From Planctomycetota bacterium (lineage in GTDB: Bacteria; Planctomycetota; MHYJ01; JACQXL01; JACRIJ01): DNA of 64,000 bases. Made by a program: the position numbers and the translations under genes. Below are positions 12,406-56,634 of the stretch, one piece after another (positions within the stretch are counted from its first letter, which is position 1; each line of letters begins with the position of its first letter). The notes below the pieces were generated by a model that was not told the origin of the DNA, searched no databases, and was given only the letters and a program-made list of their open reading frames with translations. The stretch is taken from assembly GCA_016220095.1 (NCBI GenBank), contig JACRIJ010000044.1:4191-68190 (forward strand), given 5' to 3'.

Positions 12406-12409
12406 TTTG

Positions 12410-31885: not shown

Positions 31886-31928
31886 ACTAAACTCCTTTAT
31901 TTTTCTTAAATCTAAAATCTTAAATATC

Positions 31929-40900: not shown

Positions 40901-43900
40901 GCAGATAGCATGTATCGGCCATATTCAGAACGCCTGTAACGAGAACCGCGTTATTAGCCTTCAGGTCGTCGCCGCTGTTAAGATTCAATGTGCCGCTCAC
41001 CGTAGTATTGTAAGTTATAAGCGGATTCGTTCCCGCAAGACTGCTGTTACCGCCGTTGAACTCAAGAGTATCATCACCGGCTGTAAATGACCCGTTATTT
41101 GTAAAGATATTCTGTATCTTCAAAGTGCCTGTCGCAGTTGAAATGCCCAGCACGGTGCCGTTAGAGATTTCCATATTATAAAAATTCGTAACCGTAGTAC
41201 CCGAAATATCGCAGGATACTCCCGTAAAATAAACCGTGCTGAAAATCTGCGTAAAAGCGCCGTTATTTACCCAGTTCCCCTTGACTTTCAACTGGTTTAT
41301 CGCGCCTATAGTAAGCGTTTTGACGGTAAATATTTCGATGTTATTGAATTCTGTAACTGAAATGCCGCTTACGGAAGACGGCACGCCCTTGAATACCACT
41401 TTTGATGTTGACGGGGTAAACGTACCGTCATTAGTCCAGTTACCGGTAAGATTGACCGTATATGCCTGGGCATTGAAATTAGCCGATATGCCTATTACAA
41501 TATCTCCGGAAACGGTTACATCGCCGCCGAGTGAAACCGCGGCGCTTGTATTCTCTATATGAAGGTCGTGGTATGACGCGCCACCGGGCGGCTGGGGCAC
41601 TGTCTGGACCGCGGTGCCTGAAAATTCCATTACACCGGCTGTTGACGAAAAAGTGCCGCTCATCGTAATTCCATTTTTTATCTTTAAGGTGCCTTCCACG
41701 CTTAAAGCGCCGCTGACGGTCAACGAATCCGCCGCACTGTAAACCGCGGAAGATATTATCGTAAGATTATTAAAACTTGAACCGCCGCTTGTAAGTGATG
41801 AATTTGCGCCTTTCAACGTAATGGTTCCGGCTCCGGCTGTAAATGTGGCCGAATTGGTGAATGAACCTGATATGCTTACTGTTACCGGCGAAAAAACGCC
41901 CGAATTCGTCACACTGCCGCCGATGGTAAAACTGGCGGAAGATGCGGCATTTGTAAAAGAACCGGTATTGGTAAGATTGCCGTTTATTGTAAACGTTATC
42001 GCATTGCTGACGGAAATGGCGCCGCCGTTGGAGACGTCGCGCTGGATTTCAAGTTTTGAAGTAGTGCCGCCGGAAGTAAAATTCAACTGCCCCGCGCTTC
42101 CTTCGCCCAGGTCGGATTCAATAGTTAATCCGCCCGTTATAACCAACTGCCGGTTATTTCCGGTAGTATCAAGCCGCGAACCGTCTTCCAATATCAAACT
42201 GCCTATGGTGGCATTGGTATTTAGAATGGGATACTCCGTCGTACCGTTATAAACTGGGGCGGTGCTCGGACTGCCGATCTTAACCTTTTCACCCTGTACG
42301 GGAACTCCGTCCGGGGCCCAATTCGCGGCCTCGCTCCAGTTTTGCGTGGAGCCGCCGCCGTCCCATTGCCGTATCGGCCAAACCATATCGCCACCGGCTA
42401 CGTAACCACTGCCGCTCTCGTATTCGTATAGTTCATCGCCTTTCTCGCCGCTTGCCGCAATCATGCTTAAGGCGCTTGCCGCCGCGCTGGCAGGGATGTA
42501 TACGTTGTACTGGCAATACCTGTCAAAACTGCATCCGGAAAAGACATATTTATTGGCGGTAATGCCGGCCATTTCAAGACGCAGGTAATAACCTGTCTGC
42601 AATGTATCGCTATTTGTAAAATTAACGTTATCTATGTTCAGACTGGCCGCGCTGACGATCCGCATGCCGTTATCGTCCGGGTTGGCAAAATTGAGCCCGT
42701 TTATGTTAAGAATGGCAACCGCATTGTTCACCGTAAAAGAAAATTTCGTGCCCGTATCGGTAAGCGTCGGGGTATCCGTAGTTTGAAAAGTTCCGTTTAC
42801 GGTTACTGCCGGTGTGCGTATAGTGCCGTCATTGCTCATGTATAACGTACCCGTGGTTGAAACGGTCAACTGATTCGTTACCGTAACCACATCGCCCGTA
42901 TTAACAACAAGTTTTCCGTCACATTGCAGATTGTAAAAACCAAGATTGGCCCCGGCAACGCCGCCATTCGTGCCGTTAAAAATAACCATTGAAGTCCCGG
43001 CTGAAAACGTGCCGCTGTTTGTGAACGTACCCCTGAGTTTGACCTGCCCTATCGCGCCTATGGAAAGCGTACAGGTATTCTCAAGCGAAATATTATTGAA
43101 CGTGTCCGCAACGACGCCGTTTATCACGGATGAAGCGCCGGTGAAAATGATCGTTGAATTGCCTGAAACAAAACCGGCTGTTGCCGCGTTATTGTCCTGC
43201 CAATTGCCGGAAACCTTTATGGTTTCGCCGGTATTGGTTATAGTCAATGTCGCATTATTGCTTATGGTGACATTATTGAACGTAGGCATGCTTATGCCCT
43301 GGACTTCGGAATTTGCGCCCGCGAATACAACGGTGGAAGAACTGCCGTTGAAAGTGCCGTTATTGATAAAGTTGCCGTTAATGGTAATCTGGGAATTGCC
43401 GCCGGATAACGTTGCGCCCTGGTTGATTGTCAGGTTGCCGTTCACAACAATATTACCCTGCAAGGTTACAGTACTGGAAAGATTGTTGATTACGAGATTA
43501 TTGTAGGTCTTAGCAGGAATACTCTGCGAAATTGAGCCGTTTAATTCCAGCGTACCGCCTGCGGGCGTAAACGTCGCAGGAATGGATATCGCCTTCTGTA
43601 CCTTTAAATAGCCCGCGAGAACCAACGTATCGGTAATAGTAAAATCGTCCGTAGCAGTATAGGAAGACGTTGAAGGGAAATTAACCTTAAAATAACTCCC
43701 GAGGCCTGATGCGATAGTCCTGTTTACGCCCTTGAAATAAACCGTACCCGCGCCGGGAGTAACCATACCCGTGTTATCCCAGTTGCCGAATATATTTATG
43801 GAAACCGGCGTTAGCGCGCCTGAATTTACCATATCGCCGCGCACGGTAAAAAACGCATTCGCCGCGGCAATATTGTTTGTTACAGTGCCGGTATTGAACA

Positions 43901-45248
43901 AATTGCCTTGGATGTCAATGGAGCCTGTCGTGATATTCTGTATGGTAAAATCGCCGTAATTATTGAAATCGCCGCCCACGTCCAGGTAAACGTTCGTACC
44001 TGCCGCGACGCCCCATACGACTGAACCGGCCGCACCCGCTCCGGTATCCGCTTCAATGGTAAAATCACCGGCAACGTTTAACGTCCTGCTGCTGTTAGAG
44101 GTCAGGTTGCCCCCGTCTTCGATAAGAAGAGAAGCTACATTTGCGTCCGTATTTAAGTTTGGCGCGAACTGGTTTGCAAGCGTTGATTCATCGGGAATAA
44201 TTATACGATCGGCGCCTGTAGGAGTTGCATTAGGATTCCAGTTATTGGATGAGCTCCATTGGGTAGTGCCGTTGCCGGCGTCCCATTTCTTTTCCACCCA
44301 GACGATGCTCCCGGGAGTTATTATGCCGCCGCTTGTCTTATCGTCTTCCCATGTCACACCGCCTTTTGTCCCGCCGTATCCGACCATGGATACGGAACTG
44401 TTCGGCGTACCCGCGGTAGTCCTTATGTTATACTGGCAATAGGTATCAAACGTGCAATAGCTTACGCTGTAAGGCGCCTGCGACCAGTCGTTCAGCAGAA
44501 ATTGCAGATAAACGCCGGCTTCAAGCCCGTCGCTATCCGTAAAGTTTATGCCGCCGATGGTCTGCGTCAGTGACGCGGTATTGACAATCTTGAGGCCTTC
44601 GTTATCGGGATTCGTTATGTTCAAATCGGAAACATCGAGAGAACCGCCGTTCTGAACTATGAAAGAAAGCTTTGAACCCGTATCGGCAATGCTCGGAACG
44701 GAACCGCTTGAATTAAACGTGCCTTCAACAACAACTGCCTTGACATTCATCTGGCAGGAGTTTACCATGTAAAAAGACGCACCGTTGTTAACCTTAAACT
44801 GGTTCAACACGGTAATCGTATCGCCGGCATCCATGGTAAGCTTGCTTGAAACCGTAACGTTATAAAAAGTAGGCGCCACGAGGCACGTGCCAATGGTGGA
44901 ATTACTGCCGTTGAATTCCACGGTTGACGTACCGTAATTGAAAGTGCCGTTGTCAATGAATTCGCCGCCTATCCTCAGGGTCGTTACACCGGCTCCCAAA
45001 GAAAGCGTTTTCATGTCGTCTATCTTCAAATTACTAAATGACTGCGTGGCACTGCCGTTGACGGAAGAACTCGTGCCCGTGAATATGACGGTGGAACCGG
45101 TGCTGGTAAAAGTGCCGTTATTCGTCCACGCATTGACAATTTTTACCGGCATGGCAAGTGTAAATGATTTGGCATTGATGATTTCCAGGTCATAGAATTC
45201 CGTCGTGCTTGTGCCGATAACGTACACGGGAGAACCGTTACAACTCAA
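31929..45248 (-). CDS. Giant secreted repeat protein, downstream part (4439 aa): six super-repeats plus a C-terminal beta-propeller. It is almost certainly continuous with 45311..48106 through a -1 frameshift.
   Basis: The ORF track gives 4439 aa. The modules recur with (G)SI(R/Q)WP(A/K)K(K/Q/T)W(N/V)G...W(S/T)xxxNWxPxG(V/K)PxxxxKV(I/V)IP, (G)C(S/T)FDxxCQYN(V/I), L(N/V)G(L/V)NF(Q/A)NP(D/G)DNG(L/M) and ITINGN(F/W)xNNGTFT. The last 550 aa or so are propeller-like (IYCGGTGDDAKAYLFGYN, GLVYIGNNNGKIYGID). Confidence 0.85.
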   Translation of the reverse strand: MSCNGSPVYVIGTSTTEFYDLEIINAKSFTLAMPVKIVNAWTNNGTFTSTGSTVIFTGTSSSVNGSATQSFSNLKIDDMKTLSLGAGVTTLRIGGEFIDNGTFNYGTSTVEFNGSNSTIGTCLVAPTFYNVTVSSKLTMDAGDTITVLNQFKVNNGASFYMVNSCQMNVKAVVVEGTFNSSGSVPSIADTGSKLSFIVQNGGSLDVSDLNITNPDNEGLKIVNTASLTQTIGGINFTDSDGLEAGVYLQFLLNDWSQAPYSVSYCTFDTYCQYNIRTTAGTPNSSVSMVGYGGTKGGVTWEDDKTSGGIITPGSIVWVEKKWDAGNGTTQWSSSNNWNPNATPTGADRIIIPDESTLANQFAPNLNTDANVASLLIEDGGNLTSNSSRTLNVAGDFTIEADTGAGAAGSVVWGVAAGTNVYLDVGGDFNNYGDFTIQNITTGSIDIQGNLFNTGTVTNNIAAANAFFTVRGDMVNSGALTPVSINIFGNWDNTGMVTPGAGTVYFKGVNRTIASGLGSYFKVNFPSTSSYTATDDFTITDTLVLAGYLKVQKAISIPATFTPAGGTLELNGSISQSIPAKTYNNLVINNLSSTVTLQGNIVVNGNLTINQGATLSGGNSQITINGNFINNGTFNGSSSTVVFAGANSEVQGISMPTFNNVTISNNATLTITNTGETIKVSGNWQDNNAATAGFVSGNSTIIFTGASSVINGVVADTFNNISLENTCTLSIGAIGQVKLRGTFTNSGTFSAGTSMVIFNGTNGGVAGANLGFYNLQCDGKLVVNTGDVVTVTNQLTVSTTGTLYMSNDGTIRTPAVTVNGTFQTTDTPTLTDTGTKFSFTVNNAVAILNINGLNFANPDDNGMRIVSAASLNIDNVNFTNSDTLQTGYYLRLEMAGITANKYVFSGCSFDRYCQYNVYIPASAAASALSMIAASGEKGDELYEYESGSGYVAGGDMVWPIRQWDGGGSTQNWSEAANWAPDGVPVQGEKVKIGSPSTAPVYNGTTEYPILNTNATIGSLILEDGSRLDTTGNNRQLVITGGLTIESDLGEGSAGQLNFTSGGTTSKLEIQRDVSNGGAISVSNAITFTINGNLTNTGSFTNAASSASFTIGGSVTNSGVFSPVTVSISGSFTNSATFTAGAGTITLKGANSSLTSGGSSFNNLTIISSAVYSAADSLTVSGALSVEGTLKIKNGITMSGTFSSTAGVMEFSGTAVQTVPQPPGGASYHDLHIENTSAAVSLGGDVTVSGDIVIGISANFNAQAYTVNLTGNWTNDGTFTPSTSKVVFKGVPSSVSGISVTEFNNIEIFTVKTLTIGAINQLKVKGNWVNNGAFTQIFSTVYFTGVSCDISGTTVTNFYNMEISNGTVLGISTATGTLKIQNIFTNNGSFTAGDDTLEFNGGNSSLAGTNPLITYNTTVSGTLNLNSGDDLKANNAVLVTGVLNMADTCYLRVGVSCTIQGGTFSTSGSTPVVTNTGAKYSFTVNNSGKVLLNGLFFQNPNDNGLNIAANANTSIDIDNVTFSDSDGLFQGTYITLGYTSIAAYTYSFQGCTFNDGCQYNVSTTNNVGVVNNAVTMSGDSGLRTGETYENDKGGGVVAGGGSIVWRVIRWEGDVNQFWSSAGNWNTGTIPTASDKVIIPSPDDRVGAANDPVLDINATVGSLMIYDGTVFSTSGTNRTLRVNNQLFIESNQGYGSAANLNFTSSGVGSLFNAGTIQNEGTVSSAAEIFNVSGTLTNAGFFTSTSPSFAVTGDLNNTGNFTTGNMIITGSFTNSGTFTPGAGTVTLNGTTGNVTMGSALFNSVTIPTGSVYTALDTFALSSTFTLSGYLKVKTGITFGTTFTEAGGTVDFNGTSAQTMPAETYNVIIVSNTSAGGVTAGGAIAAVDLTVNNSSVFIGGGNTITINGKWTNNGTFTSQTSNVTFAGAASTIEGTAVTTFNNLSVTNTLTVNVSEIKVNGTFSNTGTFTASNSTVTFNSGSSQIAGNAGTVFNNLKINTGATLSDVTNDVRVKNIWNNIGTFTPGSTVIRFTGSTGTIEGNATTFYQLKIAGTLTMDGSDDITVSTGLTVLSGGTFNLTGNSILRLGVTGATIEGTFTSSGTTPTVTDTGSKYAFTVGTVSGAGIVVLNGLNFQNPGDNGLNITTNAGTGFDVDNVSFTDPGDSSGVGVFLKIDKIVASSTYAFTGCSFDSGCQYNVQTANGSIAASMVVKIQGYSGAKSGGAYENDNAAGQQNPGDPDNTGSIQWPAKKWNGSVSTSWSTANNWTPSGVPSTAERVIIPSPSEFTGALAQPTLNITTTLASLEIQDGAVLTASANDIKLTVNGTLVIQSNLGEGVGQFNYSCAGATSSLLLKGAVTSGGTMSVSNAVTFTMESNFTNSGTFTNATAFTLKGSLTNSGTLTPGNMTVTGSWSNTNIITTPSGTVTFNGVAGTIASGGQSFYSLKVNSGCAYTANDSISMNAGGTLTLPGTLKLKSGITFGAAFDSTGGTLEFNGTVVQSIPTAPSSYNNITVSNTSATVSFGAVVTLNGTLTIATNAVVNAGAYTIVVSGDFTNNGTFQKGTSTITFSGAPSTIGGTSITEFNNVTISATKTLQIGAIGTAKVYGVWTNNNAFTTGSSTVIFTGIASSIAGSAVTEFYNLTVDTGVTMSIDAGIAQAKVKNVFQNDGTFTANSSTVYFTGTTAEVKGANASTFYNVQVTGTLALNAGSDITVSNALTVTSAGTLSMNGSSVLRLGTPSTAGSAAIQGLFQTSGLTPTVTDKGAYFSFTVSGASGKVLINNVTFNNPDANGLSISNTANTGFDIDYASFTSSAYLAGRTYIKINFTAGSYSFAGCSFDANCQYNVFTPSGAIAGGLVVNLLGASGSKAGGTYENDDNNGSQLPAPPANNPDNTGSIRWPAKQWVGTVSNLWSVDNNWNPIGKPQAGDKVVFPTGASNYPVSIDINSTVAGIQIQDGASVSAAAADKQLTLNGNLTLDADGGAAGVPTFTFSSGGLGSLTINGTFTTGSGSSISISSPAFTANGDVTNSGSLTIGSASSTINGKVTNSGTLVLNANITVNADWNNGGSAVFTPNTTTVTLRSSNGTIDSGGDAFYNLTIPTTYTFTANDALSVSNILTVNGMLKIKSSLSVTTTFDNTNGTIEYNGTAIQNVTAFTTYNSITISNTSATVSAGGNFTTNNITINNNAVLDGNGKTITVNNIWTNDGSFTANGSTVIFSGTPSTVAGNNITQFANITIPNTKSLSLSGVSTIKIAAAWTNNGGTFNSGSSTVTFTTASGVINGSATTEFNNITVDGGTLVESVTTNFIDLKGTFSLINSGAFTCGDSEVRFTGLGGATSGTMSFFKITITGTGKLTLDAGDDVTVQSTLAVNASGKLDMQNSCNLRLGTAIAAGTLTFNGDFSTTDTLAKPAINAVNNGNRYSMTFSTSGTVDINGLNVIDPADTGMVMANVGADPSFALDRVVFSKTTGSASGVYLVLNDTTMSGMTFSGCTFDAYCTNNVQAAGGAQNPAISFTAYGGANSGGTYEIDPQNGADPDTSGSIRWPKKTWVGDTSAVWTDPLNWEDNLTIPGNYSKVVIPTAGVTNNPSISSSVEIGSLTMENGRTLSISGNDISFTIHGSFDMTSATFSYSTGGASPKVFLIDGNVTMSGTASIAVGATAGSLTTTISGNATLGVNASITFGAINTLTGSATISGNVDNSGTITVQDFRTLNVTGNFTNQVGSNIQMPDSDTNDANGGTIKISGTFNNLGTVTFGDTADELKVTGNTTAWGTISTDKGTVTVDNQLVSPNIPAGTFYNLKINTNAITTQLTGNVVVKNLLTLQSGTFSLNGLALTIGDTVAPASGTLTVSGGTLSMNTGSSITLTNGSVITVASAAAFTASGGTILSSIPATAYYDITLNGTVNITALDVYNTNTGGKGFYITNTAAITSLTAVAFYNATVGGRHLTIEQNGPISLAVADVYFDDTYLPGGYSVAVIDTAPADGQSVCVTFEYRDAATNGNGAGSATETVTSAAVNWTYTANPDIKGAVQGFPTNAFGFLGVPGWYSTYVASRNINGANTVDRIYVLANDGKLKSPVYYYDLPDASGDIVGTPWWDNEVDTSDCDGDANVVEILHTIYFGTTKGKIVKLIDTGAALNIAAGPWVGGLDISPATDSPATAPVITDDNNIYCGGTGDDAKAYLFGYNKATKVRVASFPVSHILIDKAIYTVPSSVVDAGTTWLFLGTDFVAGSALIERINVDGGVVNASISNTNGSFKSPTMLSSYLYVTDDGSQNANKGWVHAVSPYGGFAAEVASYPWPGAAHTLTGNRVPAGITAAPWDDSGMLFFGDSGGKFYAIPTNNTPKTDAAFDASSFVIQLEAVQISCTPLTIGDGLVYIGNNNGKIYGIDISAGAVVSNPDSGTSYYYYFGQNHDITSVSYDIDADKYMIGTSQGKIFYIEPLIDPTP

Positions 45249-45310
45249 CTTTGAAGTGCCGTAGTTAAAAGTTCCGTTATTTGTTAACGTGCTGTTATTG
45301 GCGTTTAATG

Positions 45311-48106
45311 TTATGTATAGGTGCCGGCGCTGAGCGTCGCCAGGGAATTTATCGTCAGCGTACCGTTCACCAATGTATTGCCCGCGAGGGAAACCGCCGC
45401 GGAGGTATTGCTTATCTTGAGGTTATTGTACGTCCACGCCGGCACTGTCTGGGCCGCTGTGCCGTTGAATTCCACCGTGCCCGTGGTGGACGAAAACGCG
45501 CCGCTTACGGATATCGTACTCGTTACCTTGATCGTGCCGGGCAAGGTTAAATTGCGGTCAATTACCAAACTGTCAAGGGCCGTATATACCTTGCCGTTAT
45601 TAATATCCACATCGTAGAAACTTGAAGCGCCTCTGGTGATATTGCCCATGGAACCATTAAAAATGACCTTTTTGTTATTGTGCGTATAGGAAGCGGAATT
45701 GGTCCAACTGCCGCCTACGGTCACGTTGCCGGGGTTAAATGAACTGGTATTAACGACGTTTCCGCTGATAGTAAAAGTACCGCTGACACTTGCGGTAAAA
45801 CCGGCGTTATTTTCAACGTTCCCGCTGATGGTGCAATTCAGCGCCGTTATGCTTATCGTGCCCGAAGATACGACGTTTCCCGATATGGTAAGCTGTGAAC
45901 CGACCACGGACTCGTTATAAGTAAATGCCGCAACGCCGTTTCCGTCATCAGGATATAATACCAGGGCGCCGCTTATGGTCAACGTCCTGCCGACGCCGTC
46001 AGTCGTTAACTGCGCGCCGCTTTCAATTTCAATTGACGCCGCAACGCCGTTGGCATTAAGGACGGGATTATAGGTGACTTTGGGAATCCGCACCCTTTCC
46101 GTCGCCAACGGAACTGAAGCAGGGCTCCAGTTGCCATTGGTATTCCACGAAGTAAGATTGCCCACAGTGCCGCCAACCCATGTCTTTTTCGGCCATCTTA
46201 TGGAACCGTTATCGTCAGGAGCGCCTGCGGTAACCTTGCCGAGGGACTGGTCGTCTTCATACTGACCGCCGCCTTTGCCGCCGGTATAACCCTGCATGGT
46301 AACAGTCTCAGTATTCCATGTCCCTGCGGATAACGTACGCACGTTAAATTGGCAGGCAAGGTCAAATGTGCAGTTTGAAAAAGTATATGAAGTGCCTGTA
46401 GGGTCAAAAGAAAAGTTCAGATAAACGCCGGATGCCTGGCCGTCGGTATTCGTAAAATTAATGCTGGCAAGGCTGAGAGCCGCGGGTTTTGTGGTAAATT
46501 TCATGCCTTCGTTGTCCGGGTTCTTGAAATCAAGCCTGGAAATACTGATATTGTTGGCGGAACTGAAAGTCCACGTAAAATACGCGCCCCTGTCAATAAC
46601 GGTCGGTGACAATGTGCCGTTAGCCGTAAAGTTTCCGCTTATTGTCGCGGACGTACCTACTCGCAAAGTACAATTATCCGTCAGGGTCAAAGTTCTGCCC
46701 GCGGCTACTGTTATAGTATTAACGGCAAGATCGTCGCCGGCGTCAAGAGTTAACGCGCCTGTAGCCGAAATAGTGCACGTGTATAATGTCAACGGCGCCG
46801 TACCGAGCAATGCACAGGAGCCGCCGTTATAAGTCACTATCCTTGTCCCTGGGACAAACGTTGATTGGTTGTTCGTCCAATTGCCGTTGACCGTATAGTC
46901 GGCAAGCGCAGTTGCGGACACTGTAGCGCTTATGATTATATTATTAAATGTCTCCGCGGCATCTGGCAGAATGGGATTGCTTCCTGAAAATACCACCGTA
47001 GAAGTACCTTCTGCAAATGCCACATCTCCGATGTTATTATCCCACGTACCGCCGTTGATGGTTATGGTATTGGCATTGGCATTTACGGCTGTCGCGCTTT
47101 GCATAAAAAATGTGCCGAGAACTGAAAAAGACCTGCTGATAGTAAACGTAGCGCCGGCCTTGTTCAACGTAAGATTATTGAAAGACGAATCCGCGGCGCC
47201 GCCAAGGGTAGCAGTATTGTCCGCGGCAGTCATGGTTACGGTATAGTTGCCGGGATTAAATGTGCCGTCGCATGTCCAGTTGTCCGTTACAATAATATTT
47301 GTATTGGCTGTCATGACACAGCTTGCGTTGATCTTTAATCTGTAAAATTGCGTGGGATTTGAACCCGCTGTAACAGTCCCGGCGGTCCCGTTGAATTCCA
47401 CCGAACATGTATTGCCTTCAATAAATGAGCCGGTTTCAATAAAATCGCCTTTCACGCGCAAAGTGCAGGTTGCCGTACTCGCGTCAAGGGTCATGCCTGT
47501 GGGAATAACCATGGAAGGCACTTCAAGAATGGAATTAGCTACAAAGATCTCAAAAACGCCGCTGTTCGTCCATGTAAAATTATTGTTTACAACCAGTTTA
47601 GTCGCCGTGGCATTACCCAGGAAAACGAGGTTATTTGAGCCGTCAAGGTCGGCAAACTCCAGGTTATCCACGGATAAGGTATCCGTAGCATTATCAGCTT
47701 CTATATAAACATCCGAACCTGAAGACATCTTCAACTTAAGAAAACCCGTTCCGGTCAGATAAGCGGTCGCATTGCCGCTGGAAAGAAGCTGGACATCATC
47801 CCGGACGAGCAGGTTATTGTCCATAATAAGCGTTGCGCCGGCCCTTATCTGAAAATCATTCACCTCGGACGGCTGATTCAATATGACGTAATCGCCGGCA
47901 TTATTAATAATCGCCAGATCGCCTTCCCTGGGCACGCTGTTGGAACTCCAGTTCGCAGGATCGCTCCATGAAATGCCGTCTCCGCCGCCGTCCCATGTCC
48001 TGGTCGCGGCAACCGCTCCGCCTGCAAAAAGGCATAAAAACACAAGACAAATCATTGCGCGTAAAAACAGACGCCTGAATCTGACAGGTTTAAAAATCCC
48101 TATCAT
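45311..48106 (-). CDS. Giant secreted repeat protein, upstream part (931 aa, signal peptide plus two super-repeats).
   Basis: The N-terminus is MIGIFKPVRFRRLFLRAMICLVFLCLFAGGAVAATRTWDGGGDGISWSDPANWSSNSVP. AGGAGG lies 4 nt upstream of the ATG at 48106. The internal module start GSIRWPKKTWVGGTVGNLTSWNTNGNWSPASVP is the same as in 31929..45248. It ends ...LTINSLATLSAGTYT*. Confidence 0.85.
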   Translation of the reverse strand: MIGIFKPVRFRRLFLRAMICLVFLCLFAGGAVAATRTWDGGGDGISWSDPANWSSNSVPREGDLAIINNAGDYVILNQPSEVNDFQIRAGATLIMDNNLLVRDDVQLLSSGNATAYLTGTGFLKLKMSSGSDVYIEADNATDTLSVDNLEFADLDGSNNLVFLGNATATKLVVNNNFTWTNSGVFEIFVANSILEVPSMVIPTGMTLDASTATCTLRVKGDFIETGSFIEGNTCSVEFNGTAGTVTAGSNPTQFYRLKINASCVMTANTNIIVTDNWTCDGTFNPGNYTVTMTAADNTATLGGAADSSFNNLTLNKAGATFTISRSFSVLGTFFMQSATAVNANANTITINGGTWDNNIGDVAFAEGTSTVVFSGSNPILPDAAETFNNIIISATVSATALADYTVNGNWTNNQSTFVPGTRIVTYNGGSCALLGTAPLTLYTCTISATGALTLDAGDDLAVNTITVAAGRTLTLTDNCTLRVGTSATISGNFTANGTLSPTVIDRGAYFTWTFSSANNISISRLDFKNPDNEGMKFTTKPAALSLASINFTNTDGQASGVYLNFSFDPTGTSYTFSNCTFDLACQFNVRTLSAGTWNTETVTMQGYTGGKGGGQYEDDQSLGKVTAGAPDDNGSIRWPKKTWVGGTVGNLTSWNTNGNWSPASVPLATERVRIPKVTYNPVLNANGVAASIEIESGAQLTTDGVGRTLTISGALVLYPDDGNGVAAFTYNESVVGSQLTISGNVVSSGTISITALNCTISGNVENNAGFTASVSGTFTISGNVVNTSSFNPGNVTVGGSWTNSASYTHNNKKVIFNGSMGNITRGASSFYDVDINNGKVYTALDSLVIDRNLTLPGTIKVTSTISVSGAFSSTTGTVEFNGTAAQTVPAWTYNNLKISNTSAAVSLAGNTLVNGTLTINSLATLSAGTYT

Positions 48107-48231
48107 ACATCCTCCTATATATATTTATTCCATTACCAAACCGCTAAAGGCGGTTCCGGAGATTGAATCGTCACTGCCTGCCACAGTCCTGTCGCAATCC
48201 TGAGCGGAGCGAAGGGAGTAAAACGAAGGGC

Positions 48232-48300
48232 AAATTCCCTGCAGCTTACTGCAGGGAGCTTCAATCCCGCCCCGCATGATTTGTTCATGCGGGTTATTTT
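48232..48300 (+). repeat. Family D hairpin element copy d (reverse orientation), immediately followed by a terminator-like stem-loop with a T-tract on the plus strand.
   Basis: aaattccctgcagcttactgcagggagcttcaa, then cccgccccgcatgatttgttcatgcgggttatttt (stem ccgcatga/tcatgcgg followed by TTATTTT). Confidence 0.5.
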
Positions 48301-49423
48301 GATTGCTGATCTGATATGTCCTTCTCCGACTGCTTAATTTCATTTCCGTCGCCGCATTCAGGATTGAACGACCGCTCATCCTTGTGCCTGCTCATTCAGG
48401 TGTGTATCCCGAGTTTCGGAAATACAATCACAGAAAGCAGTATCCATACGCCGACAACGGCAATCATTATCAATAATGACGAAATATCCATACGCGTAGT
48501 CCCATTAGTGTCTTACGTTTCAACTTCTGCACAAAAAGCACAAAAATTTAAATGTTCCGAAAACTCCAAACACGAACCCCTAAACTATAAAGCAACATAG
48601 CCGCAACCAAACAGTTGTTCGCCTTATGAAATTCTAAGCACTAAGCTCTAAATCCTAAACAAATTCTAAATCCAAATTCTCCAAACCCGGCGGACGACCA
48701 TGTTTCGGTCATTTGAGTTTAGATATTGTTTAGGCTTTCGGACTCGTCCTACGAAGCCTTGGCGCAGTAGGATTTAGGGATTAGAGTTTTATCATCCGTC
48801 AGAATGTTTGGCATTTTTCTGTAAATATTCGCGACTTCGTGTCTTCGCGGCAAAAATCGCCGCAGTTCTCAGTGTTCTCTGAGGTTGACGTCTTGTTGCG
48901 ACTGTCTATTTTCTACATATATTATACCACAAAACACGGGATTTTGTCAAGGCGGAAAAGATAATTTTTGTATCGCCTCCGTGAAAGTCGTAATTTCATA
49001 AAAAACCAAAAACAGGATTTTGTAGAGACACGCGATCGCGTGTCTCTACAGAGTTTGATTATATTTTAACTCTTGAAAGCGACCTTCACTGAGTCCTTAC
49101 TAAATTTTGCAACCCGTCAGTAAACGGGTAAACACGAACTACGGACGTTCTTTAACAGGGACTCTACAAGACCTTAAACGGGATACAACGACCTAACGAA
49201 GAATAAATAATGGGAATCCGATATCCAAGATCCGGCGCTCGGTACCCAACGCCCGGAACCTGAAATTCTAAACCCGGATATCAACCTGTTTCCTATTATA
49301 TAAGTATAGTATTATCAATACATTACACCTTAAAATCAACCTATTCGTTATTTAACATGAATTTTTCATGCTTTTTGTAAAAGACTATAAAGATTTTATT
49401 ACAAAAAAGCCGATAATAGGAGT

Positions 49424-49486
49424 GGATTAGACGATTGAAAGATTAGAAGATTACAAGATTAGAGGGTTACAAGATTTAGAAGATTT
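49424..49486. repeat. Decamer AGATTnnAAG array.
   Basis: gattagacgattgaaagattagaagattacaagattagagggttacaagatttagaagatt. Confidence 0.8.
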
Positions 49487-49519
49487 TGGACGTTCGTCCT
49501 TGATTTTTCATATTTTCGT

Positions 49520-49948
49520 ATGGAGGCGGTTATGGAGAACCTGAAACAACGGTTATTTCAAGGCAAGCGTGACTCCGCGGCCCAGGGCAGGCATCAGGGC
49601 GGCGCCCTTGCGTATGGATACACAAAGGCCTATAATCCTGAGCTGAAGGCCGTTACCCTTAAAGTGGAACCCTTTGAAGCAAGCGTAGTCATGAAGATGT
49701 ACAGGGAATATCTGAAATTCCGCAGTCTGTCGCGGGTGGTTGATTCCCTGAATTCCTGCAACATCCCTACGCGCAACGGCAAGTCATGGTCGCGGCCTGC
49801 CGTAGGCTTTATCTTATCCAACGAACTCTATCTCGGCAAGGTCAAATACGGAACCGTAAAGGCAAAAGGACTTCACTGCCCTATTATCTCGCCAATAGTA
49901 TTCAATAAAGTCCAGCAATTAAAACAACAGAACCTGAAAAAGAAATAA
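49520..49948 (+). pseudogene. Remnant of a large serine recombinase. Only the 'recombinase' domain is present; the N-terminal resolvase catalytic domain and the C-terminal zinc ribbon are missing.
   Basis: The 142-aa ORF reads QGRHQGGALAYGYTKAYNPELKAVTLKVEPFEASVVMKMYREYLKFRSLSRVVDSLNSCNIPTRNGKSWSRPAVGFILSNELYLGKVKYG. This matches the recombinase-domain pattern G..PYGY...E..VV..IF..Y..G.S...IA..LN..GI.T..GK.W....V..IL.N..Y.G. Upstream of it there are only repeats, so the catalytic domain is absent. Confidence 0.55.
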
Positions 49949-49972
49949 GAACCCGTCTTGGGGGATAAAAAA

Positions 49973-51130
49973 ATGAAGACAAAATTGAGATTCAAACGCA
50001 AACTCGCCAAATATAAATGGCTCGCGCTCGCGGCATTTGCCGCGTTCATCTTCATAGAAACTCAGGTATGGCTGATTTACCGGAATACGCAGAATAACAG
50101 ACAGGGGATTCATGAAAACACCAAATCCGTTGCCGAACTGCGCGAAGACGCGGACAACGCCAATAACGCGATAGCCGCGGTCAACGGACGGATTGACGAA
50201 TCTGAAACCGCATCCAGGACAAACATCCAAAATCTCCGGGGACAGCTTAACAGCGCATCTTCGGATACATGGGAACGTCTTGCGGCCATTGAAAAGGAAA
50301 ACAAATCCAATCTGCTTTTCACAATGGAAGGCATGGCAAAATTGGATAAGATGGCGCATGACACCGCTCTAAATACGGATGAACTCAACAATGCCATGCT
50401 TTATCCGTCCGTACAAATTTCCGTAGGCACAGGTATCGGTGCCGGCATAATCGTATACAGCAAACCTGAAACCGGCGGAAACAACTTCCATACCTACGCC
50501 CTCACCGCGCACCACGTCATTTCGCGCGCCATAAAACGCATCGGCGCCATAGAAATCCGCGACAAGGTGTCCGTCACGGCCTTTTTCCCCGACGGCAGTT
50601 CCACGATATTCCAGGCCGATATAGTCAGTTACAATGAATCAAAAGACATGGCAATCCTGAAAATCTGCTCCACCGACAAATTCAACAATACGGCTGTATT
50701 TATGCCCAGGGCTGAGCTTAAAAACATTAAACCATTTACCGGCCTATACGCCATAGGATGCCCTCTCGGCAACTGCCCTATGCCGAGTTCCGGCGAGCTC
50801 ATGTCTAAATCCAAATTTATCAACGGGGAAAATTTCTGGATGATGAATGCGCCTACGATTTACGGAAACTCCGGCGGCGGAATTTTCATCGCAGACACTG
50901 GAAAACTTATCGGCATCTCGTCAATGATTTGCGTATATGACAATTTCATTTCCATACCCGTCGCGCACCTGGGCATTATGGTGCCACCGGATATGATTTA
51001 TGACTGGCTGGATTCGCAGTATTACAGATTCCTCTATGACAATGCAATTTCAAAAGAAACCTGCGAAACCGAAAGGAAAGAGGCGCGTAAGACTACGCCG
51101 GAAATAGTGAGAGTGACGTGGGAATACTAA
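49973..51130 (+). CDS. Membrane-anchored trypsin-like (chymotrypsin fold, S1) serine protease with an N-terminal TM and a coiled-coil segment.
   Basis: The TM helix is YKWLALAAFAAFIFIETQVWLIY. A coiled coil of about 100 aa follows. The catalytic-triad candidates are His in LTAHHV, Asp in KDMAILK and Ser in GNSGGGIF. The start was moved to MKTKLRF at 49973 (after GGGGATAAAAAA); the ORF track gives 49958. Confidence 0.7.
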   Translation: MKTKLRFKRKLAKYKWLALAAFAAFIFIETQVWLIYRNTQNNRQGIHENTKSVAELREDADNANNAIAAVNGRIDESETASRTNIQNLRGQLNSASSDTWERLAAIEKENKSNLLFTMEGMAKLDKMAHDTALNTDELNNAMLYPSVQISVGTGIGAGIIVYSKPETGGNNFHTYALTAHHVISRAIKRIGAIEIRDKVSVTAFFPDGSSTIFQADIVSYNESKDMAILKICSTDKFNNTAVFMPRAELKNIKPFTGLYAIGCPLGNCPMPSSGELMSKSKFINGENFWMMNAPTIYGNSGGGIFIADTGKLIGISSMICVYDNFISIPVAHLGIMVPPDMIYDWLDSQYYRFLYDNAISKETCETERKEARKTTPEIVRVTWEY

Positions 51131-52059: not shown

Positions 52060-52338
52060 TCACAGCTCTTTCATACGGAGCTTAAACATCTTACCGGGCT
52101 TGAATTTCACCACCTTACGCTCGGGAATAGGAACTGCTTCACGTGTTTTAGGGTTCCTTCCTATGCGCGGTTTACGGGTTTTAACCTCAAATACCCCGAA
52201 ATTCCTGAGTTCAAGCCGTTTATCTTTTATAAGTATCTCAATGACATAATCCAACACACCCTGGACTACCTTTAAGGTCACGCCCTTAGGCACGCCGTAT
52301 TTATCGCTGAGCAAATATGCCAATTCCTTTTTTGTCAC
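52060..52338 (-). CDS. hup: HU/IHF-family DNA-binding protein.
   Basis: MTKKELAYLLSDKYGVPKGVTLKVVQGVLDYVIEIL...GRNPKTREAVPIPERKVVKFKPGKMFK. Confidence 0.9.
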   Translation of the reverse strand: MTKKELAYLLSDKYGVPKGVTLKVVQGVLDYVIEILIKDKRLELRNFGVFEVKTRKPRIGRNPKTREAVPIPERKVVKFKPGKMFKLRMKEL

Positions 52339-52410: not shown

Positions 52411-52590
52411 TTTCATCGTCATCCGTCGTCATCCGTCGTCATTCGTCATCATTCGTCATCATTCGTCGTTATTCGTCGTATCGTCGTTATTCGTCGTAAT
52501 TCGTCGTAATCGTCGTATTCGTCGTATTCGTCGTATTCGTCGTAATCTTGCAATCCGTAATCTTCTAATCTTAGAATCTACAATATATAT
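52411..52590. repeat. 9-mer tandem array (tcgtcgtat/tcatccgtcg units, about 15 copies) followed by a decamer motif, directly upstream of hup.
   Basis: tcatccgtcgtcatccgtcgtcattcgtcatcattcgtcatcattcgtcgttattcgtcgtatcgtcgttattcgtcgtaattcgtcgtaatcgtcgtattcgtcgtattcgtcgtattcgtcgtaatcttgcaatccgtaatcttctaatcttagaatc. The ORF-track entry 52317..52499 (+) is a translation artefact of this array. Confidence 0.85.
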
Positions 52591-52615: not shown

Positions 52616-53785
52616 TCATTGCTGTGCGGTTTCAAAATTGAAATCGTACACGCTCGCCGTTATAGTCACGAGCACCGGCGCCGGCAGGTAGTATTCGCTC
52701 GGCCTGTACTTACCGCCTTCAAGGTCCTCCTTAGATATGGTTTCAGTCCTGTTATCCGGCAGATTACCCAACTTGCGTATCTTGATGCCTGTAACCTGAA
52801 GGTACGGCGTATACTGGTCGTCCACCTTCAAAAGACTGCTTATCAAAAGAGGAATATCCTCATATCTTATCCTGACCGCGACCCCGAAATTAATCAACGA
52901 GCCATCCGCAAAATTCGGCTTACCCGGCTGTGATATCTTATCGGCCTTGCCCCAGTAGTTGCTTATGAGTTTTTCGTAATCGGTCTTATTGGTCTCAAAC
53001 GCCATCTTCTCAAACTGCGTAACAATCGCGTCTTCCGTTCCGTCCGGTTTCGTAACGAACATCGCGTTAACGACCTTTTCAAGCACATTAAACTGCTTCT
53101 GAAATACCTTAAGGTTTTCTCTCTTAGAAAACGCATTTACGTCAGGCTTCGGCAGTACCGAAGAAGCCGCCGCGCCGGTTATCATTGACGATTCCATCTG
53201 CACCCTGGCTTTAATGAACCTGCTTTCAAGATTGTTCATTTCGTCCTTATAACGCGTCTGAAAATACGTCAAATCCGGCAAGCCGTCATTGGCGAGTTTC
53301 ATATCCTCAAACCACCTCTCAAGGATTTCATCGCCCTTCTTGTAATTTTCAATTATTTTCGCTTTTTCAGCATTAAGCGCCTCGACATATTTCGTGGTTT
53401 CATCTATGTATGTCTTGGCCGGATCTTCCTTGACCAGCACAGTACCGCATATCTGGCAATTTCCGGGCTTTTCCTGTGCGGGCTCGTCCTTGTGCACAGG
53501 GCAGATGTACTTGTCTTTAATCTTGTAATCAGCCACAGGATCTTTCATTATCAGCGGTTTCTGGCATTCGGGACACTCGCCGGCCTGATAATACGTCGCA
53601 TCCGGATGGTCACTGCACAAATAATTGGGCAATGTATCGCGAAGAAAAGTCTCCTTGGCTTCGTCAAACTCCGTCTTCCGGCCATTTATATAAAAAGCAT
53701 AAACCAGGACAAGCGCAATGATAATGCACATCATGATAAGCCAAATCGGGTTCTTGCGTATTTCACTTATAATATTGTCAAGCAT
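52616..53785 (-). CDS. PilO-like pilus assembly membrane protein (assigned by position after pilMN) carrying two tandem CxxC heavy-metal-binding-domain-like motifs.
   Basis: The N-terminal TM is PIWLIMMCIIIALVLVYAFYI. It is followed by YLCSDHPDATYYQAGECPECQKPLIMKD and YICPVHKDEPAQEKPGNCQICGTVLVKED. These resemble the HMBD found in CusB/CopA-type proteins (YxCPMHPxxxxxxPGxCPxCGMxL). A coiled-coil-rich periplasmic region follows. Confidence 0.45.
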   Translation of the reverse strand: MLDNIISEIRKNPIWLIMMCIIIALVLVYAFYINGRKTEFDEAKETFLRDTLPNYLCSDHPDATYYQAGECPECQKPLIMKDPVADYKIKDKYICPVHKDEPAQEKPGNCQICGTVLVKEDPAKTYIDETTKYVEALNAEKAKIIENYKKGDEILERWFEDMKLANDGLPDLTYFQTRYKDEMNNLESRFIKARVQMESSMITGAAASSVLPKPDVNAFSKRENLKVFQKQFNVLEKVVNAMFVTKPDGTEDAIVTQFEKMAFETNKTDYEKLISNYWGKADKISQPGKPNFADGSLINFGVAVRIRYEDIPLLISSLLKVDDQYTPYLQVTGIKIRKLGNLPDNRTETISKEDLEGGKYRPSEYYLPAPVLVTITASVYDFNFETAQQ

Positions 53786-53787
53786 CT

Positions 53788-55803
53788 TTAGATTCCTCCG
53801 TTACCATTCATGGGAATTTCATAAATCACATCGTATTTATTATAGCGCGTCTTTTCCGCGCCGGCATCTTCGGGTTCCAACGGCTCCAGCCCCTTAAGAT
53901 AATTCGCCAGGCCTAGGTCTTTTATATCGGGTTCATGAGCCAATTTCATGCCGCAGGCCTCTTCAATCCTGCCCGCAAGCCGTGTCGTGAAAATCTTCTT
54001 GAGGCTGTCCAGTGTATCAGTGCCTTTACTGCGCGCCTCAATAGCGCATGTTACAGTCAGCCTGAACACGTCCGGCTGATTTGCCTGTCCTGAACTTGAA
54101 TACGCGCGGACGTCAAGCACCCATACGGGTGTAAGATTGCCCAGCAATGCCCACAAACGGCCGGTGCTCTTCCATCTGGAATAAGCATCTTTCTGCGTTG
54201 CGTCCAGCAAAGCGGCAATTTCATCATCCGCGGCCTTTTCAAGCCCGTTCAACGTATTATTAAAAGCCGCAAAGGCCTCAGGGCTCTTATCAGCGGATTT
54301 GGAAAAGTTCCTGCTCTCTGAAGCCACTTTGTCAAAATGCTTCCGCAATGCCTGCGTGATTTTCGCCTTTTGCGCGTCATCTTTCAGCGTGATGCCCGCG
54401 GATGCTATCTTGTCCAGCACGGATTCATCGCTTATTTCCGCAACAACGGCGTTCACCGAATTCAGCGTCTTTAACGGCAGGTCCCTGTGTTCGCCTATCT
54501 TTGACAGCGTATTCAATTCCTGCAATACCGGCTGGATTTTATTGATGACTTCCTTCAGGCTCTCGCGGTTCCTGCCTATCTTCTGCTGAATACTATCCTT
54601 GTCCGCCCTGTTTATATCAAGGCCTGCCAGATTTTCACTGACATTGCTGTAAGACGCGTAAACCGTCAATCCGAGCAAAGCGGCGGCCGCGGCGACAAAC
54701 GGCACTTTTTTCATTATCTTGCGGTGATTAATAATCTCCTGCGGCATCAAATTGACTTTATTTTCCGAGATGCCGAGCCCCTGCAACGCGAGCCCCAAAG
54801 CTACGCCCAGGGAAGGCATGTATTTTTTCAGCATAGCCGAATCCACTTTTTCCGTCACTGCAATATGCTCAATGGCCTCTAATTTCAACGGTTTCAACTG
54901 CAGGCTCTGGTGCATGAAATTAGCGAAACCGTGCACCTGCGACGAACTGCCTGTAAGGACGATGCTTTCAAATTGCGCCGTCTTATGCACCGATTTATAC
55001 CATCCTATGGAACGGTTTATCTCCACGGACAGGGTCTTCATTAAAGGCATGAGGAGCTTATAAACTTCCTTCATTTTTTCCGGCTGGCTCGTGAGTTTCA
55101 ACTTCTCGGCCTCGGCAAAATTCAGATGGATCTTGCCCTGGAGTTCCTTGGTAAAATCGTTGCCTGCCACGGGAAGGTTCCTCAGCCAGACGCGTTTATC
55201 ATTTTTCTGGTTTTCAATGATTATAAGGTCGGTATTGCTTGAGCCCAGGTCAAGTACTATGCTGTTCGTATCCGCAAACTGATAGATAACGAAATTATAC
55301 AGCGCTATCGGAGCGAACTGCAGGACATCCACGCGCAGTTTAGCGACGTTGACGTGTTCAAGGAACTGGTTAACGATGTCATTTTTTATTGCGAACAGAA
55401 TATATTCGCGTTCCTCATCGGGTTTGTATTCCCTGTCAAAAAACTGATAACCCCAGATGACCTCGTTCAAAGGCAGAGGTATATTGCCCTCGGCCTGGAC
55501 GCGTATATTGCTTTCAAGGTCTTCAGGTTTGACGTCGGGATTGATTTTAATAAGCCGTGTAAATGACGAACGGCTGGGAAGCGAACAAGCGACCGTGCTG
55601 CCGGCCGGTTTATTCCTTGACCTGAATTCAGCCATAGCAGTCCTGATTTGAGCCGCTACCTGGTCGGCATCCTGAATGTCCGGCAGGAGCGGATATTCAA
55701 TGACATCCAGGCCGGCCAATTCAACACCCTCAGCCCCAAGCTGTAGTTTTACCGCCTTTATTGAGGAGTGACTTACGTCAATCCCCCAGGAACTAATAGC
55801 CAT
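53788..55803 (-). CDS. pilMN: Type IV pilus assembly PilM-PilN fusion protein.
   Basis: The PilM actin-like N-terminus is MAISSWGIDVSHSSIKAVKL. The PilN segment VNLMPQEIINHRKIMKKVPFVAAAAALLGLTVYASY (the 'NLLP' motif plus a TM helix) lies mid-protein. The ORF-track start at 55818 is TTG; the ATG at 55803 sits 8 nt after GGAGG. Confidence 0.7.
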   Translation of the reverse strand: MAISSWGIDVSHSSIKAVKLQLGAEGVELAGLDVIEYPLLPDIQDADQVAAQIRTAMAEFRSRNKPAGSTVACSLPSRSSFTRLIKINPDVKPEDLESNIRVQAEGNIPLPLNEVIWGYQFFDREYKPDEEREYILFAIKNDIVNQFLEHVNVAKLRVDVLQFAPIALYNFVIYQFADTNSIVLDLGSSNTDLIIIENQKNDKRVWLRNLPVAGNDFTKELQGKIHLNFAEAEKLKLTSQPEKMKEVYKLLMPLMKTLSVEINRSIGWYKSVHKTAQFESIVLTGSSSQVHGFANFMHQSLQLKPLKLEAIEHIAVTEKVDSAMLKKYMPSLGVALGLALQGLGISENKVNLMPQEIINHRKIMKKVPFVAAAAALLGLTVYASYSNVSENLAGLDINRADKDSIQQKIGRNRESLKEVINKIQPVLQELNTLSKIGEHRDLPLKTLNSVNAVVAEISDESVLDKIASAGITLKDDAQKAKITQALRKHFDKVASESRNFSKSADKSPEAFAAFNNTLNGLEKAADDEIAALLDATQKDAYSRWKSTGRLWALLGNLTPVWVLDVRAYSSSGQANQPDVFRLTVTCAIEARSKGTDTLDSLKKIFTTRLAGRIEEACGMKLAHEPDIKDLGLANYLKGLEPLEPEDAGAEKTRYNKYDVIYEIPMNGNGGI

Positions 55804-55900
55804 CAAAACTGCCTCCAATAATTACATCAAAAACGTAACTATTATTATTATCAACAAATTATATTCAAGTCAATAAAAAAACACCTGTTCAAGCGCCGTT

Positions 55901-56530
55901 CTACTTATTCGCCGGAGCGAGGACTTTTTTCATTATGCCGTCCTTCAGCATCGCGGCTTCGCTGGTAAGGTTGTCCACTTCCTTGCGCACCTGTAAAATA
56001 AGGTTATCCTCTTTTATCAGGCCGAGGTTGACAAGGACGTTCATCTTGCATCCGTTCAGCGCGGCCTCGGTCAAAAGCGCGCCTGTGCCGATATCGCTTA
56101 TTAGATTGGGATTGGATATCCCGATAAGTTCATGATGGAGTTTCAACACGTCCAGACATATGCGCATGCCGCGCAGGGGAACTTCCATTGCGTACTTGAG
56201 GGCCTTCTGGAGTTCAGCCCTGCGGTGTTCCTTCTGGCCGGCTTCGTTCTTAGGAAGCGTCCACGCCTTGGTAACGGCCTCATACGCGCGAATGTCTTCT
56301 TCCACAAGACTGAACAGCCGCTCCGTGCGCTCCGAAAGCTGTTTAGCCGCTTCTTTAAGCCTGTGTTCATGATCCTTAAGTTCGGGCTTGCCTACTGAAA
56401 AACTTACCGTCATACTGCCGAGCGCGGCGCCGAGCGCGGCTACATACGCCGAAACGCTCCCGCCTCCGGGAGTAGGTGTAGGCGCGGCAGTGATTTCAAG
56501 GAATTTTTTCAGGGTTTCGTTCTCAAACAT
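55901..56530 (-). CDS. Cyclodeaminase/cyclohydrolase family protein (FtcD C-terminal domain-like; formimidoyl- or methenyl-tetrahydrofolate).
   Basis: MFENETLKKFLEITAAPTPTPGGGSVSAYVAALGAALGSMTV is characteristic of the FTCD_C family. Confidence 0.7.
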   Translation of the reverse strand: MFENETLKKFLEITAAPTPTPGGGSVSAYVAALGAALGSMTVSFSVGKPELKDHEHRLKEAAKQLSERTERLFSLVEEDIRAYEAVTKAWTLPKNEAGQKEHRRAELQKALKYAMEVPLRGMRICLDVLKLHHELIGISNPNLISDIGTGALLTEAALNGCKMNVLVNLGLIKEDNLILQVRKEVDNLTSEAAMLKDGIMKKVLAPANK

Positions 56531-56634
56531 CATAATAATATTCCTCCAGTTAAACTGATTTATTGCCACTAAGACACGAGGTCACGAAGCACGCTTCTAT
56601 AAAAAACGTCCTTCGTGTCTTCGCGCCTTCGTGG

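Follow-up and report, generated by a model that had tools for sequence, protein, structure and literature searches.

Analysis of a 64,000-nucleotide stretch of a Planctomycetes metagenome-assembled genome (MAG; assembly GCA_016220095.1, 69-kb contig JACRIJ010000044.1, protein locus tag HZA48_04075; hereafter the window) revealed a tandem pair of heavy-metal-binding domains (HMBDs) in a predicted PilO-like membrane protein, encoded by a gene here called X, directly downstream of a gene for a fused PilM-PilN protein (PilMN). The HMBD pair is a real, recent and lineage-specific insert. It is rare, under selection, and found in two environmental sequences; the insert is what is new, whereas the fused PilMN and its PilO-like partner are known. 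We favor, at a probability of roughly 0.6, a reading in which PilMN and X form the inner-membrane platform of a PVC-type (Planctomycetes-Verrucomicrobia-Chlamydiae) secretin machine, with the HMBD pair serving as a structural-zinc spacer or docking element close to the membrane. The features of X, with the evidence in brackets, are:

52616..53785, minus strand: gene X, 389 aa, stop codon included, predicted bitopic and Amuc_1100/PilO-like with a tandem HMBD insert (open reading frame [ORF], Pfam, alignment, fold)
53681..53746, minus strand: signal-anchor transmembrane helix, residues ~14-35, preceded by the N-terminal motif IRKNPIW (hydropathy)
53549..53623, minus strand: HMBD module 1, Y55-I79, ligands C57/H60/C71/C74 (Pfam HMBD, motif scan)
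53432..53509, minus strand: HMBD module 2, Y93-V118, ligands C95/H98/C110/C113 (Pfam best stretch 92-119, phmmer, Foldseek)
52619..53422, minus strand: coiled coil and alpha/beta core shared with the X family and Amuc_1100/PilO, residues 122-389 (HMMER, alignment A1, Foldseek)

A tandem HMBD insertion in gene X

Six of the seven cysteines of X fall inside two YxCxxH...GxCxxC modules (residues 55-76 and 93-115), directly past the transmembrane helix, where an earlier inspection of the letters (the sequence-only reading) had placed two HMBD-like modules. The Pfam model HMBD (PF19335) matched X over two stretches (E 2.5e-10) with 40.5 bits against a gathering cutoff of 23.6, and the modules are therefore not due to chance; the same family appears in the precomputed annotation of both X and its 93%-identical relative. 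A scan of all frames of the window for CxxH...CxxC motifs found none beyond these two modules. Module 2, modelled with a predicted local distance difference test (pLDDT) score of ~80, matched the HMBD of LpCopA (PDB 8OVL) in phmmer and in Foldseek (TM-score 0.72, root-mean-square deviation 1.3 Å over 31 columns, 42% identity, probability 1.0), and the fold match was limited to this module. The pattern Y-x-C-x-x-H...G-x-C-x-x-C and the fold are thus common to LpCopA and X. The modules are also homologous to each other beyond the Pfam model (score 46 vs. −3 ± 9 for shuffled sequences) and share a K(E)DP..Y tail.

The cassette, over 80-94% of its length, aligned with the N-termini of copper/heavy-metal P-type ATPases (CopA) and with a periplasmic adaptor of the resistance-nodulation-division (RND) type. 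In the latter, from Hymenobacter (WP_135437027.1), a lipoprotein anchor is followed by YYTCSMHP...CPICGM and then YTCPMHP...CPICGM, with the order anchor, tandem HMBD and helical region already present in this periplasmic protein and, as in X, the tandem modules directly past the membrane anchor. Because tandem pairs alignable with the entire cassette exist in CopA and RND adaptors, it could have been acquired as a pair, which on the sequences would be at least as likely as local duplication as the sole origin of the modules. The hosts differ, with LpCopA and the RND adaptor belonging to metal transporters and X being a predicted subunit of a secretion or pilus platform.

Word-indexed single-sequence and profile searches with X returned only X itself, the 93%-identical relative from a Logan assembly (L001), which has the same PilMN-X gene order, and one distant member. 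An exhaustive HMMER search with residues 122-389, covering 1.84 billion representatives, added 14 proteins of 307-368 aa (24-38% identity, E 4e-8 to 1e-3), and no close relative of X turned up in a scan of metagenomes; the family is fast-evolving. All 14 distant members have gaps opposite residues ~45-120 of X but align with its N-terminus, its membrane helix and the whole of the protein from residue ~122 onward. The HMBD pair is therefore an internal insertion of ~75 aa between membrane helix and coiled coil, as the family N-terminus and membrane helix align on its N-terminal side. An N-terminal swap from an RND adaptor was considered and rejected, given that the family's N-terminus and membrane helix have their counterpart in residues 1-44.

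The insert was missing from 23 of 23 other X proteins examined (14 representatives and nine neighbors of long PilM proteins), and a CxxC motif was absent from all nine X proteins that came from genomic neighborhoods. A metal-binding-type insert in an alignment-complex subunit is thus as unusual as the sequence-only reading had supposed; to our knowledge, PilN/PilO-type platform subunits are normally plain coiled-coil and ferredoxin-like proteins with no cofactors. The same reading had named absence of the cysteine motifs from orthologues as a reason for doubt: they are absent from the distant orthologues and kept in the only close one, L001, which is also the sole other carrier of the insert. 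All eight ligands are kept in L001, and the 71-codon insert segment differs by nine non-synonymous and 15 synonymous changes, corresponding to a ratio of non-synonymous to synonymous substitution rates (dN/dS) of 0.116 at a dS of 0.47; the whole X gene has a dN/dS of 0.076 at a dS of ~0.47. The retained ligands together with the low dN/dS indicate that the insert is maintained by selection.

Family and fold of X

The AlphaFold model of X, built on the 16-sequence family alignment (pLDDT 72), consists of the membrane helix, two small beta modules, a 34-residue helix and an alpha/beta core. X has a single hydrophobic helix, and its N-terminus aligns with the family consensus xKKNxFW. In Foldseek against the PDB, the top ten matches were all chains of Amuc_1100 (E 5e-6 to 3e-5, probability 1.0), followed by Pseudomonas aeruginosa PilO (2RJZ; E 7.7e-3, TM-score 0.54 on target), Myxococcus xanthus PilO (3JC8_O) and a PilO core (5UVR). 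The Pfam PilO and T2SSM models gave no match to X at E ≤ 1, with weak T2SSM matches in 3 of 16 family members (best E 3.9e-4); NCBIfam gave no match to X, and a single-sequence search against PDB sequences offered no route to Amuc_1100 or PilO. The PilO-like layout proposed for the 389-aa protein was nonetheless borne out by the model, which predicts a bitopic protein of the Amuc_1100/PilO fold with a coiled coil and a ferredoxin-like core. Amuc_1100 itself is described as structurally PilO/PilN-like in a preprint (bioRxiv 10.64898/2025.12.30.696933).

Amuc_1100 (PDB 6KNY, 6LAD, 6LAF), a product of the Amuc_1098-1102/MUL2 cluster, is the best fold match to X and also resembles it in size once the insert is removed (~310 aa), in having an N-terminal membrane or signal helix, and in gene position directly downstream of a long PilM of the Amuc_1101 type. 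Unlike X, it has no HMBD modules, and it shows no similarity to X in HMMER profiles. Amuc_1100 is reported to be surface-exposed and active on Toll-like receptor 2, which has no bearing on X. PilO (P. aeruginosa 2RJZ and 5UVR, M. xanthus 3JC8) and GspM of type II secretion systems share with X a bitopic layout, a coiled coil and a ferredoxin-like core, and X, like PilO, partners a PilN-type protein. X differs from PilO in its larger core with extra elements, in the lack of a PilP gene after it, and in its metal-binding insert, of which no PilO that turned up in our searches had an equivalent.

The PilM-PilN fusion protein

The partner gene and its parts are:

53788..55803, minus strand: PilM-PilN fusion gene ('PilM-long'), 671 aa, stop codon included (ORF, PilM_2, NCBIfam, AlphaFold, Foldseek)
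54781..55785, minus strand: cytoplasmic actin-like PilM domain, residues ~7-341 (Pfam PilM_2 and FtsA, PDB phmmer, Foldseek)
54742..54756, minus strand: PilN N-terminal signature VNLMP, residues 350-354 (motif regular expression)
54649..54717, minus strand: transmembrane helix of the PilN part, residues ~363-385 (hydropathy; continuous model helix 355-457)
53791..54648, minus strand: predicted periplasmic PilN-like part, a long coiled-coil helix followed by a beta-beta-alpha-beta...beta core (profile match and model)
54169..54405, minus strand: private helical insertion of ~80 aa, residues ~467-545 (alignment and model)

The ORF extends over 53788-55818 and would encode 676 aa if counted from a TTG, which is where the ORF track starts it. 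An ATG five codons inside the ORF, at 55803, gives 671 aa and has a GGAGG 8 nt upstream. We assign the start to the ATG, as the TTG would overlap its Shine-Dalgarno sequence and the orthologue in L001 is likewise called at 671 aa. X starts 2 nt past the PilMN stop, with a GGAGG of its own upstream.

The PilM part was identified by Pfam PilM_2 (1.9e-40, 139 bits, cutoff 27), by TIGR01175 (150 bits, above its cutoff of 133) and by PDB phmmer matches to the PilM structures 3JC8, 2YCH and 5EOU (1e-16 to 1e-20). PilM structures were also the top Foldseek matches to the AlphaFold model (pLDDT 85), the best being 5EOU, an engineered chimera of P. aeruginosa PilM with residues 1-12 of PilN (E 1.3e-23, TM-score 0.82). 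Directly past the PilM domain stands VNLMPQEIINHRKIMKK, containing VNLMP and a basic stretch, and then one membrane helix; of the 45 PilM-long homologues listed, 44 matched a regular expression for (I/V)N(L/V)(L/I)P-type motifs at the same position, with a membrane helix again coming next. In systems with a separate PilN, the INLLP-type peptide of that protein binds PilM, as seen in structures 2YCH and 5EOU. A profile of the C-terminal half of PilMN (A4, nine family members) matched M. xanthus PilN (3JC8_Na) at E 4.8e-5 over PilN residues 4-110, that is, the N-terminal half of PilN with motif, membrane helix and coiled coil. The Pfam PilN model did not match PilMN. In the PilMN model, a helix of ~100 residues runs through and past the membrane and leads into a beta-beta-alpha-beta core. 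The fused 671-aa ORF with an ATG start that the sequence-only reading described is thus confirmed.

Compared with the PilM:PilN complex (Thermus thermophilus 2YCH and the chimera 5EOU), PilMN has a similar PilM fold (TM-score 0.82-0.83) and the same kind of INLLP-type peptide, while PilM and PilN are products of separate genes in model type IVa systems and form one polypeptide here. The same architecture is common to more than 314 protein clusters of 595-711 aa, nearly all labelled Planctomycetota, which makes the fusion a family trait and no peculiarity of this locus; as an unusual feature in itself it was therefore rejected. The NCBIfam model Amuc_1101_fam (NF045709) matched residues 55-509 (2.1e-60), well past the PilM domain, with 205 bits, under the equivalog cutoff of 650. 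Judged by these scores, PilMN has an architecture related to Amuc_1101 and is not an equivalog of it.

What also sets PilMN apart from both the PilM:PilN complex and the Amuc_1101 family is its extra ~80-aa helical insertion. The columns concerned are occupied in fewer than 15% of 49 homologues, and the segment is modelled as three helices at pLDDT ~86-91. It is conserved in L001 and co-occurs with the HMBD insertion in X.

Gene order and missing partners

Four consecutive minus-strand genes make up the locus, in the order FTCD_C-type cyclohydrolase, PilMN, X and an HU/IHF-family gene. The outer two are:

55901-56569, minus strand: cyclohydrolase-type gene, FTCD_C (ORF list and domain match)
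52060..52338, minus strand: HU/IHF-family gene hup (Bac_DNA_binding, 2e-27)

Relatives were reached in two ways, through X-family members (L002/L003, L004, L005, L006, L007) and through the nearest PilM-long proteins (L008, L009, L010, L011, L012); the genome scan for X-family loci used a six-sequence subset of the 16-sequence alignment. In every locus checked, PilM-long is followed by a gene whose product belongs to the X family or is X-like and has 316-354 aa, or 650 aa in the case of L007. Where contigs were long enough (L004, L005, L006, L009, L010, L011), the order was PilM-long, X, Y and a secretin with tetratricopeptide repeats (TPRs). Y is a membrane-anchored protein of ~315-365 aa, with a weak, sub-threshold fn3 match in L005 (23.7 bits vs. 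a cutoff of 25), and the secretin is a lipoprotein of 860-900 aa that carries TPRs at its N-terminus and a secretin domain at its C-terminus. Genes are ordered likewise in L007, where Y has 278 aa and the secretin 796 aa. That cluster (L007 7005-14177, from a Candidatus Anammoxibacter MAG) is divergent, comprising a 545-aa PilM-like protein with a weak T2SSL match, the 650-aa X-like protein, and Y-like and TPR-secretin proteins of the lengths given. A conserved DHH/DHHA1 phosphoesterase gene lies upstream of the cluster in L008-L012, L004 and L005, accompanied by a UDG-family gene in L008-L012, and a TPR protein of ~1000 aa is often encoded downstream of the secretin in Planctomycetota clusters.

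In Akkermansia muciniphila, the Amuc_1098-1102 cluster places the PilM-like Amuc_1101 before Amuc_1100 and Amuc_1099 (PMC4960237, PMC5332112, PMC13174399), and Amuc_1098, annotated 'PilQ', is a 907-aa TPR-plus-secretin protein (PMC4960237, PMC13174399). The order PilMN, X, Y and TPR-secretin of the relatives matches this layout from Amuc_1101 to Amuc_1098, and their secretin has the same design as Amuc_1098; in the window, Y and a secretin are not adjacent to X. The nearest characterised counterpart of PilMN-X is accordingly found not in a classical operon for type IVa pili but in Amuc_1101/Amuc_1100 of the Akkermansia TPR-secretin cluster. This refines the sequence-only reading, whose interpretation is supported.

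The flanks of PilMN-X also differ from those of the relatives, with CoaBC-FchA upstream and hup downstream instead of DHH-UDG upstream and Y-secretin downstream; hup thus occupies the place held by Y and the secretin. No Y or secretin homologue was found in the 64-kb window by tblastn or Pfam, no pilP or pilQ downstream of X, and no pilin or PilB/T/C gene in the Pfam scan of the window, in line with the earlier statement that hup, and not pilP or pilQ, follows. In the window lineage, the PilMN-X pair is separated from the rest of the cluster.

Such a separation raises the question of whether PilMN-X is an orphaned remnant, split from Y and the secretin by rearrangement, in which the insertions are tolerated baggage of a decaying system. 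Y and the secretin are not on the contig, while they are adjacent in six relatives; the flanking synteny, which in relatives consists of DHH-UDG upstream, is lost as well, and a recombinase fragment lies 2.7 kb downstream. Decay is, however, difficult to reconcile with strong purifying selection (dN/dS 0.076 for X overall and 0.116 for the insert, at dS ~0.47), with both ORFs being intact and preceded by good Shine-Dalgarno sequences, with an arrangement that is stable in a second lineage (L001), or with a private PilMN insertion that is confidently folded in the model. We therefore regard a decaying remnant as very unlikely.

Membrane topology and metal sites

Across 23 X-family members, a net positive charge marks the short segment at the N-terminus, and past the helix the flank is neutral or acidic. 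By this bias and by analogy with PilO, PilN and GspM, X would be oriented N-in, C-out, which would place the modules below the coiled coil, at the inner membrane's periplasmic face.

For LpCopA, nuclear magnetic resonance identified M44, C59 and M61 as the Ag(I)/Cu(I) ligands, while C42/H45/C56/C59 overlay the metal ligands of domains that bind zinc (PMC11970713). In the window, the modules have the sequences CSDH...CQK and CPVH...CGT: the C-x2-H...C-x2-C ligand set is intact in each, and both copper-type methionine positions are replaced in both (D59/K76 in module 1, V97/T115 in module 2). Canonical HMBDs retrieved in our searches retain both methionines, in C(P/S)MH and CGM motifs. Since Cys-His-Cys-Cys is retained and both methionines are lost, we prefer to see the modules as Zn-type Cys3His sites, probably structural and zinc-ribbon-like, rather than as Cu sensors. 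The likeness to heavy-metal domains of the CusB/CopA type noted from the sequence thus extends to family and fold, and not to the copper-type ligands.

The same residues bear on whether the pair is a working periplasmic sensor or sink for Cu(I), Ag(I) or another soft metal, which would couple assembly or gating of the secretin to metal stress or pass metal to efflux. Membership in the HMBD family is clear, the nearest sequence matches are copper/heavy-metal P-type ATPases and an RND adaptor, and the succession of membrane anchor and tandem HMBD mirrors the periplasmic adaptor; in LpCopA, moreover, autoinhibition is relieved by this domain in its role as a copper sensor (PMC11970713). Against a sensor stand the replacement, in both modules, of both methionines of the tri-sulfur Cu(I) site of LpCopA and the neighborhood of the genes. 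A Pfam scan of the 64-kb window found no copper- or metal-resistance or metal-homeostasis gene, and a metal-resistance neighborhood was rejected on that basis. A soft-metal sensor is possible, if unlikely.

A further possibility is that the CxxC pairs act as a thiol/disulfide or zinc-redox switch, in which periplasmic oxidation would free the metal or form disulfides and so alter how the platform stalk is folded. X has two CxxC motifs, probably periplasmic, and the organism looks anaerobic from neighboring genes including those for Fer4 proteins, with relatives carrying POR-type enzymes. The argument is nonetheless one of pure analogy, as no sequence feature specifically indicates redox activity, and we know of no redox-switch role for HMBD domains; we consider a switch highly improbable.

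On the preferred structural-zinc reading, PilMN and X would be the Planctomycetota counterpart of Akkermansia Amuc_1101 and Amuc_1100. PilMN is a natural fusion in which the cytoplasmic PilM domain is joined to its own PilN anchor peptide (VNLMP), a membrane helix, and a periplasmic coiled coil with an alpha/beta core. X would be its PilO-like partner, with a short cytoplasmic N-terminus, a membrane helix, a periplasmic coiled coil and a core of the Amuc_1100/PilO fold. Into X, the two-HMBD cassette of ~75 aa was inserted in one lineage, between membrane helix and coiled coil, which would be on the periplasmic face. Each module would hold one structural metal ion, most likely Zn(II), and the pair may form a rigid membrane-proximal spacer or docking element. 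It probably works with the helical insertion of ~80 aa in PilMN, a gain of this lineage too: both partner subunits acquired 75-80 residues, predicted to be periplasmic, which suggests that the insertions function together. That they constitute a co-evolved module making the secretin platform responsive to periplasmic metal or redox state is a stronger proposition, which we hold to be clearly improbable.

Several points weigh against this structural-zinc platform. Module 1 was modelled with low confidence (pLDDT ~50). The likeness of X to Amuc_1100 is purely structural, with modest TM-scores of 0.52-0.64 on target, and a search of all PDB sequences with the X-family profile A1 returned no Amuc_1100 or PilO chain at E ≤ 10. 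The proposed topology draws on the charge bias of the family and the PilO analogy; in the window X itself, the charges flanking the helix are balanced, so that the periplasmic placement follows from the behavior of the family. Besides zinc, a Cys3His site can accommodate Cu, Cd, Fe or Ni. As carriers of the insert total two sequences, the conservation statistics are thin. Finally, the machine served by PilMN-X is not visible here, because Y, secretin, pilins and ATPases are not on the contig.

Flanking features of the window

A promoter-like site (TTGACA-17-TAGATT at 52603-52575) lies immediately past the X stop. The hup gene is probably transcribed as a unit of its own, outside the PilMN-X system. 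Downstream of this site, in the spacer from the X stop to hup, a 10-nt unit is repeated in tandem at 52412-52544 (13.8 copies, 88% matches), reading TTCGTCGTCA on the plus strand and ACGACGAAT-like on the gene strand; the array is probably located in the 5' leader of hup. L001 has two or three degenerate units and an X-hup spacer of 142 bp vs. 277 bp in the window, which indicates that the array expanded recently in the window.

Further along, 48100-51130 is lower in guanine-cytosine content (42.5% over 48001-50000 vs. ~47-50% in neighboring windows) and encodes a 142-aa C-terminal fragment of a serine recombinase (49520-49948) and a membrane-anchored trypsin-like protease (49958-51130). L001 has this fragment/protease pair too, plus a GIY-YIG gene after hup. 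The low-GC stretch may be a mobile-element remnant near the breakpoint of the cluster.

A row of three very large, probable surface proteins is encoded on the minus strand at 29036-48106: one of 949 aa with PQQ-like beta-propeller, fn3 and beta-helix domains, a giant ORF of 4439 aa, and one of 931 aa with an N-terminal signal-like helix and no Pfam match. A type II restriction-modification pair, made up of a BsoBI-type restriction endonuclease (Pfam 3.9e-145) and an adjoining DNA methylase, occupies 11452-13870 of the same strand.

Significance

PilMN-X with its HMBD insert is a real but narrow oddity, whose function is predicted here from sequences and models. Its practical reach is limited, as only two environmental sequences carry the insert. 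Should the co-evolved metal or redox module prove true, it would be the first metal-gated alignment complex of the PilN/PilO type, and a case in which a secretion or pilus machine took up a metal sensor domain of the kind known from transporters. A selected metal-binding-type cassette at the membrane-proximal stalk, matched by a private insertion in its partner, would amount to a natural experiment on platform extension or regulation. The locus also ties the much-studied Akkermansia proteins Amuc_1100 and Amuc_1101 to a Planctomycetota family that is large, unstudied and alike in gene order, a link that supports Amuc_1100 being a PilO-like platform subunit and not a pilin.

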